Assembly (NCBI GenBank): GCA_045600105.1
Contig: JAZRXG010000021.1
Coordinates: forward strand, 5,387 to 69,386
Direction: 5' to 3'
Source: Eubacteriales bacterium
Lineage (GTDB): Bacteria; Bacillota; Clostridia; Oscillospirales; CAG-382
Length of the DNA stretch: 64,000 bases
Shown piece after piece: positions 4,547-59,459 of this stretch; position 1 is the stretch's first letter, and each line of letters begins with the position of its first letter. The translations under genes and the position numbers were made by a program. The notes beneath the pieces are model-generated. The model made no database searches. It saw nothing but the letters and a program-made list of their open reading frames with translations, and was not told where the DNA came from.

Positions 4547-6918
4547 TCGGCGATACCTCCCTTCAGAGTTTTCTTCACACTGGACTCAAACATCTTTTTG
4601 ACATATTTTCTCGAAAGTCTGACCGCGATGCCGATGACGATGGCGGCGATGAGGATATAGTCAAAAGCGTGCAGATAGCGGAACGCGCTGTTGAGCGACG
4701 GCGAACGGTAAACGAGAAACGCAAGGACCGCCGTGACGACGAACGCCGGAACGACCGAAATGAACGTCTGCACGTATGCGCTTATCTTTATAACTTTTGT
4801 CGGTATGCCCATCGAACGCATTATCGCGACGTCGCCCTTGACGGAGTCCATCGCGTGGGAGGTGCAGAGTCCGAGAAGCATTGAAATGAACACCACGCCG
4901 AGTATCCAGAGCACCACGAGCCAGCCGAGCGTCAGTATATCGAGAGCCGCCGACATGACGTTCTCGCTCTTGGTCTCGTCGCTCGCAACGGCGGTGTATC
5001 CCATTTTGCGGAGCGCTTCGACGGCATCGTGCGCGTCGCCGTCGGAATCAAAGAACAGCGACGTCTGATAATACGTGCCCGGAAAATAATCGTCGTACAT
5101 GAAATCGCAGAAGGTCTCGGGTGAAATTATCGCGTACATTTCGCCGCCGTATATACCGCCTGACGCGTCTTTTTCGATACCGTCGGGTATCTTGGTGATG
5201 ACGTCCGACGAATCAAAGAGCTTTTCGACTCTTTTGTCACCCGGGACGTATTCGTCGATCCCGAGCATTTCAAGATACGAATCGTATGCTCTGGTGACCG
5301 AATAGCCGAAAATGCCCATATCGGGGACGTATGGCTTTCCCCCGATATCCGATCCGATCACATCGAACACTGTCGGAGACACGTAGATCTTGCCTTTTTC
5401 GGCGCTGCGGCTCAGCCTGAGAGGCAGTGCGGTGCTGCTCATACCCGGTATGCCGACATAAGCGCCGAAGATGCTGCTGCCGTAATAGTAGTAATGCGAG
5501 CTGTCTCCGGTGCATTTTTCATAGAACGAAAGGGCGGTCGCGGTCTTGTAGCCTTCTTCGGTGAAGAAAACGCGGCCGTTTTTCGTGTTGTCGTAATAAT
5601 ACGAAACGCCGGTGACGACGTAGTCGATGCCGCCGCACATCTTCTCGACGGTGAACGGCGCAAAGCCGTTCTTTTCAAGCACGTTCTTGGCGCTTATCGG
5701 GACGCTTATGATTATCTCGCTGTCGTTTTCGGGATATCTTCCGGCGTCGAGCTCGAGTTTTTCGGCAGGATAGTCGAAATTGCATCTGTAAGAATAATCG
5801 TCCTGATCGTCGCCGTAGTAATAATATTCTTCCGCGGCGTCGTCTTTCTCGCCGAGTGCGAGAATTATGCTGCTGTCGAGCATGAAATCGACCCTTACGG
5901 CGTCGCAGGCGAATTTTTCACTTATCGAATCAAGCTCGGCGTCGGATATCGCGCTGCCGTCGTTCCGTGCTATGATAACGCGTCCGTCGACGTGACGGAA
6001 GATGTAATTCTTTTCAAACAACTGCTTGGAATCCGAGCTGACCGACGTGATCATCGCGAGGACCAGCGTCGTGACCGTCATGAGCAGGCACAGAAACGCC
6101 GAAAGCTTGGGCGTTGCCGTGAACCTCGCCATTCCGAGTATCAGTCCGTTTTTGAGAGTGGAAAAGCGCTTTTTGGGCTCTTCCTCCGCCTTTGCCGTGT
6201 ATTTCCCCGTCTCCTCGTGAGGAGCGACGACCTGATCGGCGCCGATCTCGCCGTTGAAAACGCGGATATGTCTGGTGGCGTATTTTTCGACCTGCTCGAA
6301 ATTGTGCGTGACGACTATGACGAGCTTATCACGCGAGACCTCGTGAAGCAGGGCGATTATCTCCTCCGAAGTTTTGCTGTCGAGGTTGCCCGTCGGCTCG
6401 TCGGCGAGTATCACGGGGCTGTCCTTGGCAAGAGCACGCGCAATGACGGTGCGCTGCTTCTGACCGCCCGAAAGCTTGCTGCCCTTGTGGTGTATGTGCT
6501 TTTCGAGCCCGACGCGCCTTATCAGCTCAAGCGCCTTTTCGCGCCTTTTCGCCGTGTCTTCTATGTTCATCAGCGCGAGCTCGACGTTCTGCAGCACGGT
6601 GAAGCTTTCGAGAATGTTGTAATCCTGAAAGATGAAGGAAATGTATTCCTTGCGGTATTCCTCCCAGTCCTTCTGCAGATAATGGCTCGTCGGCTCGCCG
6701 TTTATCAGAAGCTCGCCTTCTTCATAGGTATCCATTCCGCTTATCACGTTGAGAAGCGTCGATTTGCCCGAACCCGAGCTGCCGGTGACGGCTACGAATT
6801 CGCCTCTGTCGAACGCGAGATCCACGTGACGGATACCGACCGATACGTTGTTGTCCGAAACGTAAATTTTTCCTATATTCTTCAGTTCAAGGAAGCTCAT
6901 GTCTGTCTCCTTTTTCAA
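4543..6918 (-). CDS. MacB-type fused ABC transporter (ATPase + FtsX-family permease), 791 aa
   Basis: Walker A GSSGSGKST, LSGGQKQR and ILADEPTGNLD. Same topology as its downstream paralog: TM, large external domain, three C-terminal TMs. Confidence 0.85.
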   Translation of the reverse strand: MKKETDMSFLELKNIGKIYVSDNNVSVGIRHVDLAFDRGEFVAVTGSSGSGKSTLLNVISGMDTYEEGELLINGEPTSHYLQKDWEEYRKEYISFIFQDYNILESFTVLQNVELALMNIEDTAKRREKALELIRRVGLEKHIHHKGSKLSGGQKQRTVIARALAKDSPVILADEPTGNLDSKTSEEIIALLHEVSRDKLVIVVTHNFEQVEKYATRHIRVFNGEIGADQVVAPHEETGKYTAKAEEEPKKRFSTLKNGLILGMARFTATPKLSAFLCLLMTVTTLVLAMITSVSSDSKQLFEKNYIFRHVDGRVIIARNDGSAISDAELDSISEKFACDAVRVDFMLDSSIILALGEKDDAAEEYYYYGDDQDDYSYRCNFDYPAEKLELDAGRYPENDSEIIISVPISAKNVLEKNGFAPFTVEKMCGGIDYVVTGVSYYYDNTKNGRVFFTEEGYKTATALSFYEKCTGDSSHYYYYGSSIFGAYVGIPGMSSTALPLRLSRSAEKGKIYVSPTVFDVIGSDIGGKPYVPDMGIFGYSVTRAYDSYLEMLGIDEYVPGDKRVEKLFDSSDVITKIPDGIEKDASGGIYGGEMYAIISPETFCDFMYDDYFPGTYYQTSLFFDSDGDAHDAVEALRKMGYTAVASDETKSENVMSAALDILTLGWLVVLWILGVVFISMLLGLCTSHAMDSVKGDVAIMRSMGIPTKVIKISAYVQTFISVVPAFVVTAVLAFLVYRSPSLNSAFRYLHAFDYILIAAIVIGIAVRLSRKYVKKMFESSVKKTLKGGIAE

Positions 6919-54034: not shown

Positions 54035-54063
54035 TTGACAAAACAGGCAGCGTATTATATAAT
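54035..54063 (+). promoter_or_regulatory. consensus sigma-A promoter of the peptide/radical-SAM operon
   Basis: TTGACA (54035-40), 17 nt, TATAAT (54058-63). Confidence 0.7.
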
Positions 54064-54093
54064 TAAAGAAAAAAGTTCACGGAGGAATACAAA

Positions 54094-54426
54094 ATGGCAA
54101 AAAAGGATAACAAGACCGCTACTCCGATGATGTGCGTGTACGCAGGTCCGGATTCGCTTTATTGGAAGACCGGGAACCTGAGCGACGCGAGCAGGATCGA
54201 TCCCGATTCCGAAACGGCGAAGAATAATATCGGAGCTGCCGATCTCCGTATGCGCGGCGTTTACGCGGGTCCCGAGGCGATGAGTCAGCCGATCCCTCAG
54301 CCGAACATACAAGCCGAAAAGAAAAAGTTCTGCCCCGAGTGCGGTGCGCCCAACGCGCTCGTCAACCGTTTCTGCACCGAATGCGGAACGAAGCTGACCT
54401 ACCCCGATTCCGATAAACAAGGCTGA
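54094..54426 (+). CDS. 110-aa protein: low-complexity N-terminal part with duplicated M-x-x-VYAGP motif plus C-terminal Zn-ribbon; candidate radical-SAM substrate
   Basis: GGAGG 8 nt upstream. Contains MMCVYAGPDS and MRGVYAGPEA, then CPECG-x10-CTECG. The stop lies 2 nt before the radical-SAM start. Confidence 0.7.
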   Translation: MAKKDNKTATPMMCVYAGPDSLYWKTGNLSDASRIDPDSETAKNNIGAADLRMRGVYAGPEAMSQPIPQPNIQAEKKKFCPECGAPNALVNRFCTECGTKLTYPDSDKQG

Positions 54427-54428
54427 AT

Positions 54429-55439
54429 ATGAGTGTTTACAAGCTCGATTCCTGCGTTTGGGAAATAACGCTCGGCTGCTGCTTTTCGTGTAAATACTGC
54501 GGTTCGGGCGGCGGCAGAAAGCGTGAAAACGAGCTGACGACGGACGAATGTCTTTCGGTCGCCGAACAGCTTTCGTCTCTCGGCTGCAGGCGCGTGTCGC
54601 TCATCGGCGGCGAGGTCTTCATGCGGAGCGACTGGGACGTTATCGTTTCCTCCCTCACGTCGCGCGGCATTTCCGTCGTCATCATCACCAACGGCTGGCT
54701 TTTCACCGACGAGCTGATAGAAAAACTCAAAAAGCTCGGTATCGAATCGGTCGCGGTGTCACTCGACGGGCTGAAGGACGTTCACGACAAATACCGTCAG
54801 GCGGGCAGCTTTGACAGAGCGGTAAAAGCCTTGGATATGCTTACGTCGCACGGTGTGCCGACGTCGGTCATTTCGACTCTGAACGCCGAAAATGCGCGTT
54901 CTCTCGCGCTTTTTTATGAATTTCTCAAAACCAAAAGGTTGTGCGCCTGGCAGCTTCAGGCGTGTTCTCCCATGGGCAACGCCGCGAAAGGCGGAATAGA
55001 TTATCGATTTGACTTCAACTCCGTCATTTCGTTCGTCTCGTCGGTGATGCGCTCCGCTCCCTTCCCCGTCGGCATTGCCGACAATATCGGTTATTTCACC
55101 GAGGACGAAGGTTCCCTCAGGGGCAACCTCAGCGGATACGCCTATTTCAGGGGCTGCAGAGCCGGACTTACGTGCATCGGCATCGACAGCGTGGGCAGCG
55201 TGAGAGGCTGCGAGTCGATGTACGATGAAAAGTTCATCGAAGGAAACCTGCGCGAAAGAACGCTTGCCGAAATATGGAACGATCCCGATGCTTTTGCCTA
55301 TAACCGCAGGTTCGATCCCGATATGCTGACCGGAAAATGCGCTGAATGCGAATACGGTCATATCTGCGGAGGCGGCTGCAGATCGTACAATCACTTCGTC
55401 CACGGCAAAATGTACGAATCACCTTTCTGCGCGAAATAA
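54429..55439 (+). CDS. radical SAM enzyme with C-terminal SPASM domain (peptide/protein-modifying type)
   Basis: CxxxCxxC (GCCFSCKYC) near the N-terminus. SPASM CxxCxxxxxCxxxC (CAECEYGHICGGGC) plus upstream Cys (GCRAG...GCES). 336 aa. Confidence 0.85.
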   Translation: MSVYKLDSCVWEITLGCCFSCKYCGSGGGRKRENELTTDECLSVAEQLSSLGCRRVSLIGGEVFMRSDWDVIVSSLTSRGISVVIITNGWLFTDELIEKLKKLGIESVAVSLDGLKDVHDKYRQAGSFDRAVKALDMLTSHGVPTSVISTLNAENARSLALFYEFLKTKRLCAWQLQACSPMGNAAKGGIDYRFDFNSVISFVSSVMRSAPFPVGIADNIGYFTEDEGSLRGNLSGYAYFRGCRAGLTCIGIDSVGSVRGCESMYDEKFIEGNLRERTLAEIWNDPDAFAYNRRFDPDMLTGKCAECEYGHICGGGCRSYNHFVHGKMYESPFCAK

Positions 55440-55445
55440 AGATAC

Positions 55446-55475
55446 AAAAAAGAGTGCCGAGGCACTCTTTTTTTT
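55446..55475. terminator. bidirectional intrinsic terminator
   Basis: aaaaaagagtgccgaggcactctttttttt. Confidence 0.85.
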
Positions 55476-55486
55476 CGCTGAAATAA

Positions 55487-56131
55487 TCAATAATTCTTTT
55501 CGTTGACTTCGAAATAAGCCTGAGGATGAGCGCAGACGGGGCAGATCTCGGGGGCTTTGGTGCCGACGACGATGTGTCCGCAGTTGCGGCATTCCCAAAC
55601 CTTGACTTCGCTCTTTGCGAATACTTCCTGTGCTTCAACGTTGTGAAGAAGTGCGCGGTAGCGTTCCTCGTGAGCCTTTTCGATGGCGGCGACTCCGCGG
55701 AATTTTGCGGCAAGCTCGGGGAAACCTTCTTTTTCGGCGGTAACCGCGAAGCCCTCGTACATATCGGTCCATTCGTAGTTTTCGCCGTCAGCCGCTGCCG
55801 CGAGATTCTCGGCGGTGCTGCCGATGCCGTTCAGTTCCTTGAACCAGAGCTTTGCGTGTTCTTTTTCGTTATCGGCGGTCTTGAGGAAGAGAGCGGAGAT
55901 CTGTTCAAATCCGTCCTTCTTTGCCTGCGACGCGAAATAGGTGTATTTGTTTCTTGCCTGGGATTCACCCGCAAAAGCGGCTTCGAGGTTCTTTTCGGTC
56001 TGAGTGCCGGCGTATTTGTTGGCGATGAGTTCAAGCTTTTCACCCTTCTGTCTGCATTTTGGGCAAACCGCTTCTTCTCCGTCCTTCACGGTGAATATTT
56101 CGCCGCATACTTTGCATTTGTAAGTTTTCAT
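55487..56131 (-). CDS. rbr: rubrerythrin with rubredoxin-like CxxC pairs at both termini
   Basis: N-terminal CKVCG...CPKC, a ferritin-like diiron core ([19 protein letters not shown]), and C-terminal CRNCG...CPVC. Confidence 0.9.
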
Positions 56132-56345: not shown

Positions 56346-56732
56346 TTATTGTTTTTCAAGACAATCGGCGCATACTCCGTCAAATCTGAGCTGTGCCGAA
56401 ATAACGGCATACCCGGTGGATGATGTGACCTTTTCGGTCAGCTTTTCGGGAAGAGGCACGTCGTGTACGTCGTCCATTCTTCCGCATTTTACGCATACGA
56501 CGTGCGTATGCGGCACAATGTTGCCGTCGAAGCGTTCCTGACCGTTGACCGTGCCGACGGATCGGATCACGCCCGCTTCCTTGAGCTGCGAAAGATTACG
56601 GTAAACGGTGGCAAGGCTCATATTCGGATAATCGGGCTTGAGTCGGGAATAGACCCAGTCCGCGGTCGGATGTGAAGTCGTATTTATAAGGCAGTCTATT
56701 ATCGCCTGTCTGTTTCTGCTGTATCGCTGCAT
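56346..56732 (-). CDS. perR: Fur-family regulator, PerR-like
   Basis: Winged-helix N-domain, HTHVVCVKCG and CADC Zn site. Upstream of rubrerythrin. ATG 56732 lies 6 nt after GGGGGA. Confidence 0.8.
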   Translation of the reverse strand: MQRYSRNRQAIIDCLINTTSHPTADWVYSRLKPDYPNMSLATVYRNLSQLKEAGVIRSVGTVNGQERFDGNIVPHTHVVCVKCGRMDDVHDVPLPEKLTEKVTSSTGYAVISAQLRFDGVCADCLEKQ

Positions 56733-56936
56733 CGATATCCCCCGCAATTATGGTTGGTAATAATGATTACTATTTGATAATAGCATTATTATTTGTTTTG
56801 TCAATAGTTTTTTCAATAATTTTGTTATCCCGATCGTATTTTTTGCTCAAAAAAAGTGCAAAGTGTGTTTTTTTCATTGCAAAAAAAGAAAAAACGGATT
56901 ATAATGGTATAACAAAAAACGAACGGGGTATTTTTT

Positions 56937-59459
56937 ATGGAATACTTTCTCGCAATAGACATAGGAGCGTCGTCGGGACGCCACATCATCGGATACCGCG
57001 AAAACGGAGTTATGAAGACGAAAGAGGTCTTCCGTTTTCCTAACGGAGTCATAAAAAAAGACGGGCATCTGACGTGGGACATCGCGTCGCTGAACGAAAA
57101 CGTAAAAAAAGGCATTGCGAAAGCGAAAGCCGAATACGACGGGATAGTGAGCCTTGCCATCGACACGTGGGGCATCGACTACGTTCTGATGAAGGGCGAT
57201 GAAGAGGTGACGCCGTGCTTTGCCTACCGCGACGACAGAACAAAGAAATACATAGACGAGCTTCATTCGGTCGTTCCTTTCGAAACGCTGTATTCGCACA
57301 CGGGCTGTCAGTTCCAGCCTTTCAATTCCATCTATCAGCTTTACACCGACCTAAGGGAAGGCAGGCTGGAGGACGTCACCGATTTTCTGATGATACCCGA
57401 GTACCTTATGTATAAGCTGTGCGGCGTAAAGATAAAAGAATATACCAACGCCACCACGACGGGAATGATAAACGCGAAGACCGGCGGATTCGACGAGGAT
57501 ATCGTAAGTTCTCTCGGACTGCCGCGTCATCTCTTCCCTTCTCTCACGCGTCCGGGAAAGGTCATCGGCGAATACGACGGCATAAAGGTAATGACCTGCG
57601 CCACGCACGACACGGGCTCTGCCGTCGAGGGCATACCGATGGACGGCGACGAGATATACATATCCTCCGGAACGTGGTCGCTGCTCGGCGTAAAGACGGC
57701 GTCCCCCGTTACGGATTACGGCAGCATGAAAGAAAACTACTCGAGCGAAGGCGGAGTGGGATACAACAGATACCTCAAGAACATAATGGGCATGTGGCTC
57801 ATAAACAGGCTGAAAGACGAGCTTTGCCCCGAAAAATCGTTTGCCGACATAGTAAAGGGCGCCGAAGCAAGCACGTTCGACGGTCTGGTCGACGCAAACG
57901 GAAGCGCGTTTCTGTCGCCCGAGAGCATGAAGGAAGCGTTCGACTCAGCACTTGACGAAAAGCCGAAGAGGGACGACGACTATTTCAGATGCGCCTACCG
58001 TTCGCTCGCCGTCTGCTACAAAAAAGCAGTCGAAGGGCTGGAAGGAGCACTCGGCAAAAAATACTCAAAGATATACATCGTCGGAGGCGGCGCCAAAAAC
58101 GATTTTCTCAATTCACTCACCGAGGAATACACGGGCAAAAAGGTCATTGCCCTGCCGATAGAGGCAACGTCGCTCGGCAACTTGAAAATACAAGCGGAGG
58201 CATACGACAAAATGACACGTTACGAAAGCGCAAAGCAGATCTATGCAAAATACGGCATCGACGCCGAAAAAGCCATCTCGCTCGCCTCGTCCAAGCCCAT
58301 TTCCATCCATTGCTGGCAGGGCGACGACGTGACGGGCTTCGACAACCCCGACGGAGGCGCCGGCAACGGCATACAGACGACGGGCAACTACCCCGGAAAA
58401 GCGCGTAATTTTGAAGAACTCAAAGCCGACTTTCTCAAAGCCGCTTCCCTCATCCCCGGCAAAAAACGCATCAATCTGCACGCCTGCTACGCCGTTTTCA
58501 AGGACGGCGAATGGGTCGACAGAGACAGGATAGAATACAAACACTTCGCTCCATGGGTAGAGTTTGCCAAGGAAAACGGCTTCGGCATCGACTTCAACCC
58601 TACGGTGTTCAGCCACCCGATGATGAAGGACGGGCTTTCGCTCTCTTCCCCCGACGAGAACGTCCGCCGTTTCTGGATAAACCACTGCAAGGCGTGCCGC
58701 AGGATCGCCGAAAGGATAGGCGAAGAGCTGAACGACAGCGTGCTTGACAACGTGTGGATCCCCGACGGACTCAAGGACGTGCCTGCCGACAGGCTCACGC
58801 CGCGTCTCCGTCTCAAGGCGAGCCTTGACGAGATATTCGCCGAAAAGCTGCCGCACGTCATCGACTGTGTCGAAAGCAAGGTGTTCGCCATCGGCGTCGA
58901 AAGCTACACGGTGGGCAGCAACGAGTTTTATATGAGCTACGCCGCGACTCATCCCGGCGTGTATAACCTGCTCGACAACGGTCACTATCACCCGACGGAA
59001 GTCGTCAGCGACAAGATCCCCTCGCTGCTCGCGTTCTTCGACAAGGTGCCGCTCCACGTCACCCGCGGCGTCCGCTGGGACAGCGACCACGTAGTCATAC
59101 TCGAAGACGAGATAAAAGAGATAATGAAAGAGATCGTCAGAAACGACGCGCTCGACAAGGTTATAATCGGCCTTGACTTCTTCGACGCTTCGATCAACCG
59201 CGTCGCCGCGTGGGTCATCGGCGCGAGAAACGCCGAAAAGGCGCTGCTCTGGGCGCTTCTCCAGCCGCACGACGAACTGAAAAAGCTTCAGGACGAAGGC
59301 AGCTTCACGAAGAAGCTGATGCTGATGGAGGAAGCGAAAACACTTCCGTTCGGCGATATATGGACCGAATACTGCTCCCGCAGCGGCGTTCCCGCCGATG
59401 AAAGCTGGTATAACGTCGTGGAAGACTATGAAAAGAAAGTGCTGGTGGAAAGAAAATGA
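56937..59459 (+). CDS. rhaBA: fused rhamnulokinase / L-rhamnose isomerase (RhaB-RhaA), 840 aa
   Basis: aa 1-425 form a FGGY kinase (AIDIGASSGRH...GGGAKNDFLN). aa 426-840 form rhamnose isomerase (MTRYESAKQIYAKYGID...SIHCWQGDDV). There is no stop codon between the two halves. Confidence 0.85.
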   Translation: MEYFLAIDIGASSGRHIIGYRENGVMKTKEVFRFPNGVIKKDGHLTWDIASLNENVKKGIAKAKAEYDGIVSLAIDTWGIDYVLMKGDEEVTPCFAYRDDRTKKYIDELHSVVPFETLYSHTGCQFQPFNSIYQLYTDLREGRLEDVTDFLMIPEYLMYKLCGVKIKEYTNATTTGMINAKTGGFDEDIVSSLGLPRHLFPSLTRPGKVIGEYDGIKVMTCATHDTGSAVEGIPMDGDEIYISSGTWSLLGVKTASPVTDYGSMKENYSSEGGVGYNRYLKNIMGMWLINRLKDELCPEKSFADIVKGAEASTFDGLVDANGSAFLSPESMKEAFDSALDEKPKRDDDYFRCAYRSLAVCYKKAVEGLEGALGKKYSKIYIVGGGAKNDFLNSLTEEYTGKKVIALPIEATSLGNLKIQAEAYDKMTRYESAKQIYAKYGIDAEKAISLASSKPISIHCWQGDDVTGFDNPDGGAGNGIQTTGNYPGKARNFEELKADFLKAASLIPGKKRINLHACYAVFKDGEWVDRDRIEYKHFAPWVEFAKENGFGIDFNPTVFSHPMMKDGLSLSSPDENVRRFWINHCKACRRIAERIGEELNDSVLDNVWIPDGLKDVPADRLTPRLRLKASLDEIFAEKLPHVIDCVESKVFAIGVESYTVGSNEFYMSYAATHPGVYNLLDNGHYHPTEVVSDKIPSLLAFFDKVPLHVTRGVRWDSDHVVILEDEIKEIMKEIVRNDALDKVIIGLDFFDASINRVAAWVIGARNAEKALLWALLQPHDELKKLQDEGSFTKKLMLMEEAKTLPFGDIWTEYCSRSGVPADESWYNVVEDYEKKVLVERK

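Follow-up and report, generated by a model that had tools for sequence, protein, structure and literature searches.

We describe a pair of genes in a 64,000-nucleotide window of DNA from a Eubacteriales bacterium (contig JAZRXG010000021.1, positions 5,387 to 69,386 of the forward strand); coordinates below count from the first letter of this window. An open reading frame (ORF) of 110 aa (54094-54426) is followed, 2 nt after its TGA stop, by the ATG of a gene for a 336-aa radical S-adenosylmethionine (SAM)/SPASM enzyme (54429-55439), both on the + strand. The pair is genuine, conserved, widespread among gut and rumen Clostridia and uncharacterised; no curated family or name exists for either partner. 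It is a self-contained two-gene operon in which the enzyme appears to be encoded with its own substrate: comparison with relatives makes the small protein very probably the substrate of the adjoining SPASM maturase, and the two genes probably make a new kind of chemically modified protein. The original prediction, drawn from the letters of the window, had proposed an undescribed radical SAM/SPASM maturase and substrate cassette, and this is supported, the homologs of the enzyme being paired with similar ORFs and the enzyme itself falling outside the known families. As to the chemistry we tentatively propose, with confidence a little short of even, a leaderless, motif-directed, Tyr-centred maturase that would excise tyramine at V-Y-A to leave an alpha-keto-beta-valine ketoamide.

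Conservation of the gene pair

A search with the enzyme gave 1,748 homologs at E<=1e-20. Many that are 65-72% identical, from Lachnospiraceae and other Clostridia metagenome-assembled genomes (MAGs), are named merely 'radical SAM protein'. Scanning one genome per species yielded 108 loci, 80 of which were kept for neighbour counts. A motif ORF, mostly with a zinc ribbon, adjoins the enzyme in 77 of the 80 loci, which come from different Clostridia genomes and otherwise unrelated contexts; a conserved pairing of this sort is what the original prediction had asked for. Where an upstream ORF exists (76 loci), it carries at least one [VAIL]YxxP site in 75 cases and at least two in 69, with a maximum of eight. 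At one locus (L073) the motif ORF (MSFFGRIFGSKKEKK...PPLCVYAGPPVDE...) lies directly downstream, at about 5020-5255, the sole such order among the 80, and at another (L003) it is partial, cut by the contig end. No motif ORF was found within 4 kb of the enzyme at L063, or in the 195 and 313 nt that the contigs offer upstream at L075 and L078.

In 34 of the 76 loci the upstream ORF has its stop codon overlapping the start of the enzyme gene, and most of the others lie within 30 nt. In all-against-all clustering of neighbour ORFs the substrate cluster spans 60 loci, versus at most six for any other gene cluster; no other neighbour is conserved, and so the two genes travel together across differing genomic contexts. 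Since their adjacency is kept without other shared neighbours, the pairing is not a product of chance. The 77 substrate ORFs hold 255 sites, whereas 171,279 aa of neighbour ORFs contain 16 relaxed motifs (~170-fold enrichment). Source annotations call the substrate proteins only 'hypothetical' or 'zinc ribbon domain-containing'. Natural enzyme-substrate fusions were not seen among the homologs, the longer of which (P0100, P0036, P0076 and P0056) bear unrelated N- or C-terminal tails. Neighbour clustering found no conserved MftB/PqqD-type chaperone, peptidase or tailoring oxidoreductase near the enzyme, and neither the window nor the set of conserved neighbours has a PlpY-like ORF.

The repeated site and its carriers

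The window protein contains VYAGP twice, at residues 15-19 and 56-60, with Met at -4 of each. Both predicted modification sites, MMCVYAGPDS (residues 12-21, Tyr16; 54127-54156, + strand) and MRGVYAGPEA (residues 53-62, Tyr57; 54250-54279, + strand), fit the family consensus given below. They had been described as an exact internal duplication, which is true of M-x-x-VYAGP and not of the rest of the decamer; synonymous differences, moreover, separate the codons of the two VYAGP copies at three of five third positions (GTG/GTT, GCA/GCG and CCG/CCC), so the repeat seems to be kept at the protein level rather than to be a recent DNA duplication. The four-Cys ribbon noticed near the C-terminus, CPECG...CTECG (residues 80-98; 54331-54387, + strand), was recovered by Pfam (PF13240, 33.7 bits, cutoff 25), whose matches to the small protein are all zinc ribbons and none rubredoxin. 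The ORF also has a YPD tail. AlphaFold2 (AF2) returned a mean predicted local distance difference test score (pLDDT) of 54.9 for the 110 aa, which predicts a disordered and hence accessible substrate. No Nif11/NHLP leader or obvious leader helix occurs in the window protein, and NCBIfam and Pfam gave neither a DUF1842/1843 match nor a GDL motif in it. In its near relatives the repeat occurs one to three times, and M-x-x-VYAGPDS-x-YWK, the four Cys and YPD do not vary.

Over the 255 instances the site reads P-x-[M/I/T/F]-x-x-V-Y-A-G-P-[E/D/P/G]-x-[M/F], with Val at -1 in 225, Ala at +1 in 245 and Gly at +2 in 210. Substrates have 1-8 copies at a median spacing of 20 residues. The variants VYAAP, VYAPP and VYASP are mostly from Oscillospirales; VYNGP, VYMGP and VYFGP make up a minority of sites, and VYGxP, with Gly directly after Tyr, accounts for nine of the 255. 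Position -2 is most often Cys (43/255, 17%). No second conserved aromatic, Lys or Cys stands at a fixed distance from the Tyr in these sites.

V-Y-x-G-P is the only element common to all substrates. The remainder is fast-evolving, acidic, Pro-rich and predicted disordered, and VYAGP-family substrates have no hydrophobic segment or signal peptide. A second short motif, YP-x-(N/R)-(Y/H/A), is found in 60 of 77 substrate ORFs. Zinc ribbons occur in 58 of 78 upstream ORFs, in 49 of these 58 after the last site. The original prediction had treated motif and ribbon together as marks of the pair; the motif is universal, while the ribbon proves dispensable, and the ribbon was rejected as a recognition element, being missing from about a quarter of substrates. 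Many substrates (e.g. those at L002, L005, L006, L008, L010 and L016) begin with an amphipathic MKNFFK(K/N)LF(G/K)KKYP(E/D)R, a segment that the window protein does not have. By analogy with binary spliceases, it could play the role of an activating helix.

In some loci the site-bearing tail is fused to a folded domain: WXG100 (L054, L060 and L067), FHA (L062), GNAT (L055) or FMN reductase (L061 and L070). The WXG100/ESAT-6-like upstream proteins (PF06013, 43.7 bits), from three Clostridia MAGs, end ~90 nt before the radical SAM gene and have a single C-terminal tail, ...MIMTLYAAPNSFKF or ...MLYGAPQTIL; their sequences suggest that substrates of type VII secretion can carry the modification. 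The FHA fusion, from a Faecalibacterium MAG, has the site DVYGPPELF, a canonical X-Y-G. In the two FMN-reductase loci the upstream ORFs (364 and 346 aa) join the VYAGP and ribbon region to an N-terminal NADPH-dependent FMN reductase domain (PF03358, 75.9 bits), which might serve the radical SAM enzyme as a built-in source of electrons, or be an artefact of MAG assembly or a frameshift. These WXG100, FHA, GNAT and FMN-reductase fusions, like the disordered multi-site substrates without signal peptides, fit the earlier suggestion of a modified protein, not a secreted peptide, as the possible product.

The nearest outside clade (P0189), with loci from metagenomes, has 45% enzyme identity. Its upstream ORFs carry (N/Q)YPxxxE..V-Y-(F/Y/A)-G-P-(Q/D)-Y-(F/Y)-E once or twice; given V-Y-(F/Y)-G-P there, the core conserved across clades is V-Y-x-G-P, with the +1 residue varying over the clades (A, F, Y, N, M or G). 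Enzyme and site are kept together down to that 45% identity. A zinc ribbon is found in some sister-clade substrates (L093 and L094) and missing from most. On JGI metagenome contigs (L095-L099 and L101) the substrates start with a hydrophobic, signal- or lipoprotein-like segment (MKKILAIMMFLLYILSFGKCG...). The sequences of this clade indicate that its modified product is probably exported. Beside a remoter radical SAM homolog (L103 and L107), the protein directly upstream has 157 aa, is apparently folded and ends in ...V(V/I)LYMAKP(K/Q); Met follows Tyr there, as in one Azospirillum DUF1843 protein, and the tail represents another Tyr-tail substrate type.

Placement of the enzyme

The enzyme is a member of the radical SAM/SPASM superfamily, with both the CxxxCxxC motif and the seven-Cys SPASM pattern (PF04055, 102.7 bits, cutoff 29.5; PF13186, 34.6 bits, cutoff 21.5). 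The cluster motif C17-x3-C21-x2-C24, read directly, lies inside VWEITLGCCFSCKYCGS (54477-54500, + strand), and the SPASM domain (55155-55430, + strand) contributes C243, C261, C304, C307, C313, C317 and C334, predicted to hold two auxiliary [4Fe-4S] clusters. The cluster motif and all seven SPASM Cys, C304-x2-C307-x5-C313-x3-C317 included, are invariant in 48 homologs. The protein is minimal, ending two residues past the last SPASM Cys; an RRE (the recognition element of peptides that are made on the ribosome and modified after translation) is absent, the radical SAM motif beginning already at residue 17. The AF2 model (pLDDT 86.3, predicted template modelling score 0.87) was matched by Foldseek to PqqE (top), SuiB, SkfB and anSME with template modelling (TM) scores of 0.66-0.75, and the nearest solved structure by sequence is SkfB (74.3 bits). 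No protein named splicease was among the Protein Data Bank matches of either the sequence or the Foldseek search.

No curated NCBIfam cutoff is reached. The best matches are TIGR04103 'nif11-class peptide radical SAM maturase 3' (227.6 bits) and TIGR03913 'GDL motif peptide-associated maturase' (209.2 bits), followed by WgkB (143.7 bits). Lower scores go to StsB (128.5 bits, cutoff 625), SkfB (87.2, cutoff 300), MftC (126.6, cutoff 265) and PqqE (73.5), and among housekeeping families to anSME (73.6, cutoff 349), AhbD (142, cutoff 500) and NirJ (126.2, cutoff 515). The enzyme thus stands outside the anSME, heme (AhbD/NirJ), sactipeptide, MftC and other curated NCBIfam families, membership of which would have spoken against an undescribed cassette. 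PlpX, the prototype tyramine splicease, belongs to IPR026482 (PMC11002830).

In exhaustive HMMER searches the family consists of one full-length 50%-identity cluster representative plus fragments, beyond which identity drops to 35-49%; 473 cluster representatives were found at E<=1e-30. For each of the ten nearest outside representatives TIGR04103 and TIGR03913 are again the two top families, neither at cutoff, a pattern of scores that indicates a large uncurated superclade of splicease-like enzymes.

Reference enzymes were those members of TIGR04103 and TIGR03913 named by the Prokaryotic Genome Annotation Pipeline (PGAP), obtained with tblastn against annotated plasmids. In a neighbour-joining tree the VYAGP-associated family and the named splicease clade are each monophyletic (100%), and these two with an A. 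rectalis enzyme stand apart from MftC, NirJ, TIGR04053 and two PqqD-associated enzymes (92%). On this limited sampling and by a distance method the VYAGP-associated family appears as sister to the named splicease clade, not inside it. The enzyme had been called an orphan; by NCBIfam scores and tree it is no phylogenetic orphan but probably a sister of the tyramine-splicease families. Three signatures, VWEIT...CGS, WQ(I/L)Q..PMGNA and NIGY(Y/F), are common to the family and the spliceases and absent from the outgroups. The Tyr sites encoded beside the reference enzymes are ALYGLPPELF in a Nostoc Nif11 precursor, MYG and PYG in Burkholderia DUF1842/1843 proteins, LYG, PYG and MYM in Azospirillum DUF1843, LYA, MYA and PYG in Aureibacter DUF1843, and LYG and MYA in Ralstonia DUF1842/1843. 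With LYA and MYA near these enzymes, Ala after Tyr is already present among presumptive splicease substrates.

Some other relatives have unusual forms or settings. P0186 (731 aa) is an apparent tandem radical SAM/SPASM fusion, with a TIGR04133-like N-terminal half (262 bits) and a splicease-like C-terminal half (317.6 bits), and P0195 is very long (938 aa). A plasmid of Agathobacter rectalis DFI.5.28 (L081; NZ_CP143948.1, 207982-209136) encodes a 384-aa radical SAM/SPASM protein, 39% identical, and then an MFS transporter; there is no recognisable Tyr-motif ORF alongside, and the locus was not used as evidence.

Proposed chemistry

Reductive cleavage of SAM would give a 5'-deoxyadenosyl radical, and radical chemistry at the invariant Tyr, the presumptive reaction centre, would remove a tyramine equivalent (C8H9NO), the Val carbonyl becoming joined by a C-C bond to the former Tyr carbonyl. 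Each V-Y-A would be turned into an alpha-keto-beta-valine ketoamide, then Ala-Gly-Pro, with a change of -135.07 Da per site. We infer that each site is read directly by the enzyme, without leader, RRE domain or partner protein. The product would be a protein or peptide bearing one or several electrophilic ketoamides. There is precedent for such a system: PlpX excises tyramine at X-Y-G and can act on a short tag with no leader present, and binary X+A systems, which dispense with a Y protein, occur widely (PMC11414181, PMC11002830, PMC9811515 and PMC5995677). Known spliceotide ketoamides inhibit Ser/Cys proteases (PMC11626197 and PMC9811515). Any biological role here is conjectural; multivalent ketoamide protease inhibition is possible, and one may speculate that the conserved Val sets the P1 side chain of a ketoamide inhibitor.

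Several points weigh against tyramine excision. The site is not X-Y-G: Ala follows Tyr in 245 of the 255 sites, both window sites being V-Y-A, with Gly moved to +2, and in the sister clade a bulky Phe or Tyr follows. The enzyme scores far under the splicease-family cutoffs (227.6 vs 725 for TIGR04103, 209.2 vs 591.75 for TIGR03913), is about 33% identical to named splicease-family members (32.7% to the PGAP-named Nostoc member) and is without their C-terminal extension of 80-180 aa. A protease or exporter that would release or export a peptide product is not nearby. The tree is a neighbour-joining tree of 19 sequences with 300 bootstraps and few outgroups. The comparison also leans on IPR026482, taken to be TIGR04103, and on the TIGR03913 systems, which the 2022 splicease survey reportedly found to be proven spliceases. 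Splicing at the Tyr-Ala and Tyr-Met sites of GDL-type substrates is likewise presumptive.

More broadly, we think it possible, though with distinctly less than even confidence, that V-Y-x-G-P enzymes form a distinct Clostridia-wide class of protein maturases, which would either splice out tyramine under a new site grammar (any residue between Tyr and Gly) or carry out an undescribed radical chemistry at Tyr. Products of this class would be proteins modified at several sites, non-secreted or, in some lineages, delivered by type VII secretion or as lipoproteins, and would have a physiological role in abundant gut and rumen anaerobes.

Alternative explanations

The foremost alternative to tyramine excision keeps the same pair and gives it another radical reaction at V-Y-x-G-P: a cyclophane- or streptide-like C-C or C-O cross-link of the Tyr ring, epimerisation of Val, Tyr or Ala, or C-beta dehydrogenation or hydroxylation, with mass changes of -2, 0 or +16 Da. 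We consider it unlikely, while giving it serious weight. The site amounts to X-Y-G with one residue inserted, and its conserved G-P at +2/+3 suggests turn geometry; the distance from the splicease cutoffs and the absence of the C-terminal extension speak for it too, as do the similar folds of SuiB, PqqE, SkfB and EpeE, which do cross-linking or epimerisation, and WgkB in third place among NCBIfam matches. A local cross-link, however, has little to hold on to: the freely variable +1 residue makes a side-chain link to that position unlikely, Gly at +2 has no side chain, and no conserved aromatic, Lys or Cys partner stands at a set distance from Tyr. Cross-linking and epimerase families, moreover, score 85 bits or more below both splicease families.

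In PQQ biosynthesis PqqE processes Glu...Tyr, and in mycofactocin biosynthesis the C-terminal Val-Tyr of MftA is the dipeptide modified by MftC. The V-Y unit here, in which Val is unusually conserved (225/255), is exactly that dipeptide, MftC and PqqE are among the SPASM relatives (126.6 and 73.5 bits), and PqqE is the top Foldseek match, all of which would suit a precursor of a small redox cofactor or metabolite, mycofactocin- or PQQ-like, with the repeat protein as a multi-copy scaffold that is later proteolysed. But V-Y is internal rather than C-terminal, the chaperone, peptidase and tailoring oxidoreductase of such pathways are not conserved nearby, MftC falls in the outgroup of the tree, and sites fused to WXG100, FHA and GNAT domains suit protein modification better than a sacrificial scaffold, which leaves a cofactor precursor improbable.

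The Cys that is commonest at -2, and present in window site 1, might instead be tied to the motif backbone by a thioether bridge of sactionine or ranthionine type, as might a Cys of the ribbon; SkfB is the nearest solved structure by sequence, and the StsB-type sactisynthase model scores 128.5 bits. Such bridging is quite improbable, as that Cys occurs in just 17% of sites and is absent from window site 2, the ribbon is missing from about a quarter of substrates and from most of the sister clade, and the splicease families outscore those of sactipeptides by about 100 bits.

In their form, CPxCG...CxxCG knuckles are like the metal sites of rubredoxin. The small protein might on that ground be an accessory factor, a rubredoxin-like four-Cys electron donor or a regulator, with the target of the enzyme encoded elsewhere, and the FMN-reductase fusion of two homologous ORFs (L061 and L070) hints at a redox link. 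We regard this as very improbable: the Pfam matches are all to zinc ribbons and none to rubredoxin; substrates can do without the ribbon, whereas V-Y-x-G-P is universal and comes in 1-8 copies, behaving as a substrate core rather than a cofactor site; and the window has no other V-Y-A-G-P ORF, YAGP outside the small protein being absent from all six frames of its 64 kb.

Finally, a chance adjacency of a low-complexity ORF and a housekeeping SPASM enzyme for heme, sulfatase or cofactor maturation, for which the significant partial scores of the AhbD, NirJ and anSME models (74-142 bits) might speak, is effectively refuted by those families all lying far under cutoff, by adjacency in 77 of 80 genomes without other shared neighbours and again in the 45%-identity sister clade, and by the overlapping start and stop codons of 34 of 76 loci.

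Locus layout and flanking genes

The features listed in the original prediction are all present as described: promoter, 110-aa ORF, 2-nt gap, 336-aa enzyme, CxxxCxxC motif, SPASM domain and bidirectional terminator. The predicted sigma-70-type promoter, a consensus match at 12 of 12 positions, consists of TTGACA (54035-54040), a 17-nt spacer and TATAAT (54058-54063) on the + strand. A ribosome-binding site read directly from the sequence, GGAGGA (54081-54086, + strand), lies 7 nt 5' of the small-ORF ATG. The intrinsic terminator hairpin (55446-55473, both strands), AAAAAAGAGTGCC-TCGG-GGCACTCTTTTTT, has a 12-bp stem flanked by an A-run and a T-run; the stem was matched by the scan on the - strand, and the T-run of the + strand was read from the sequence. 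It is common to the cassette and a convergent rubrerythrin gene.

That no protease or transporter is adjacent was claimed before, and it holds in that neither a protease nor an exporter adjoins the gene pair in the window flanks; the nearest transporter genes, for an ABC ATPase and a BMP-like binding protein, lie upstream, 1-4 kb away on the opposite strand. The remaining flanks, unrelated to the cassette, encode xanthine phosphoribosyltransferase, rubrerythrin, a PerR-like regulator and a RhaB-RhaA fusion. The 50-58 kb stretch matched nothing in Rfam, and the divergent xpt gene had no purine riboswitch in that scan.

The rubrerythrin (55487-56131, - strand) scores 251.8 bits, over its cutoff, and has an additional N-terminal CxxC...CxxC rubredoxin-like segment besides the C-terminal one. 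It adjoins the PerR-like Fur-family regulator (56346-56747, - strand), and the two look like an oxidative-stress module. The fusion is a single ORF of 840 aa (56937-59459, + strand) that joins rhamnulokinase (residues 5-437; 425.6 bits, under the TIGR02627 cutoff of 528) to L-rhamnose isomerase (residues 427-839; 639 bits, over the cutoff).

Novelty and significance

A VYAGP-type motif had no mention in the literature searched, which did not cover the splicease survey of Scott et al. 2022 (Chem), where the clade may appear. That survey, as summarised in PMC10849128, filtered on YG-motif frequency beside SPASM enzymes, and on that summary the filter would not flag V-Y-A-G-P.

If V-Y-x-G-P is spliced, the accepted X-Y-G rule does not cover all ribosomal formation of beta-amino acids, and YG-frequency mining has missed a family in well over a hundred species-level Clostridia genomes, human-gut MAGs included. 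A 336-aa enzyme that is free of partners, independent of a leader and active on a tag of 5-10 residues in disordered sequence would, if real, be a tool for placing ketoamide handles in proteins. Should the chemistry differ, the pair would offer a new Tyr-directed radical SAM reaction in a highly conserved enzyme-substrate pair ready for study. Either way, there would be an unexplored post-translational modification in the Lachnospiraceae and Oscillospirales that dominate gut and rumen, attached to carriers as varied as zinc ribbon, WXG100, FHA and lipoprotein-like proteins.

Comparison with known systems

MftC, like the window enzyme, is a SPASM radical SAM protein whose substrate presents a Val-Tyr dipeptide (that of MftA). 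It requires MftB and a C-terminal Tyr, whereas V-Y is internal here and mft genes are absent near the locus; the window enzyme stays under the MftC cutoff (126.6 vs 265 bits), and MftC is an outgroup in the tree. Membership among sactipeptide or ranthipeptide systems is likewise not indicated, with StsB and SkfB under cutoff, no RRE and no conserved Cys in the site.

With anSME the window enzyme shares a compact SPASM architecture (~340-370 aa) without RRE, a fold similar at TM 0.69-0.72, and a predicted leaderless action on a short motif within a protein. anSME, however, oxidises Cys or Ser in the C/S-x-P/A-x-R motif of sulfatases that are usually encoded elsewhere, and neither a sulfatase nor that motif is present here.

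TIGR03913 with DUF1842/DUF1843 is the second-best hidden Markov model (HMM) match, at about 33% identity. Its substrates too are proteins or small domains rather than leader-core peptides and lie in one or more copies directly upstream, and in their site Tyr may be followed by Ala or Met (LYA, MYA and MYM beside MYG, PYG and LYG). The DUF1843 substrates, however, are helical and free of repeats, their one site preceding a (G/N)D(L/V) motif; the enzymes are of 470-520 aa with a long C-terminal extension, in which the Burkholderia enzyme itself carries a CxxC...CxxC ribbon. The hosts are Proteobacteria and Bacteroidota. No experimental chemistry of these systems was found in the literature searched, and the DUF1842/1843 papers are silent on radical SAM chemistry.

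The closest likeness is to the spliceotide systems (PlpX/PcpX/RhaX/RcsX, TIGR04103/IPR026482). The window enzyme differs from theirs in being ~33% identical and scoring less than one third of the curated cutoff, and the cassette is without C-terminal extension, PlpY or Nif11/NHLP leader. Gly stands at +2 here versus +1 there, the substrate is long, disordered and repeat-bearing, with a zinc ribbon, and the chemistry is putative. The hosts here are anaerobic gut and rumen Clostridia, while plpX homologs were placed by a 2018 summary in cyanobacteria, proteobacteria and some actinobacteria (PMC5995677). In common with the window cassette, the spliceotide systems have a gene for a radical SAM enzyme with a SPASM domain adjoining that of the substrate (there Nif11/NHLP-type precursors); their enzymes are its best HMM match and its apparent sister in the tree, with three shared signatures. 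The sites of both are short, Tyr-centred and Pro-flanked (PIRP-L-Y-G-LPI and ALYGLPPE there, PxMxx-V-Y-A-G-P-E here) and can be multiplied; recognition can be independent of a leader, and binary systems without Y protein exist (PMC11414181). Because the enzyme lies below the family cutoffs and its sites are not X-Y-G, the cassette is not filed as a member, yet its working is like that of a binary spliceotide system.

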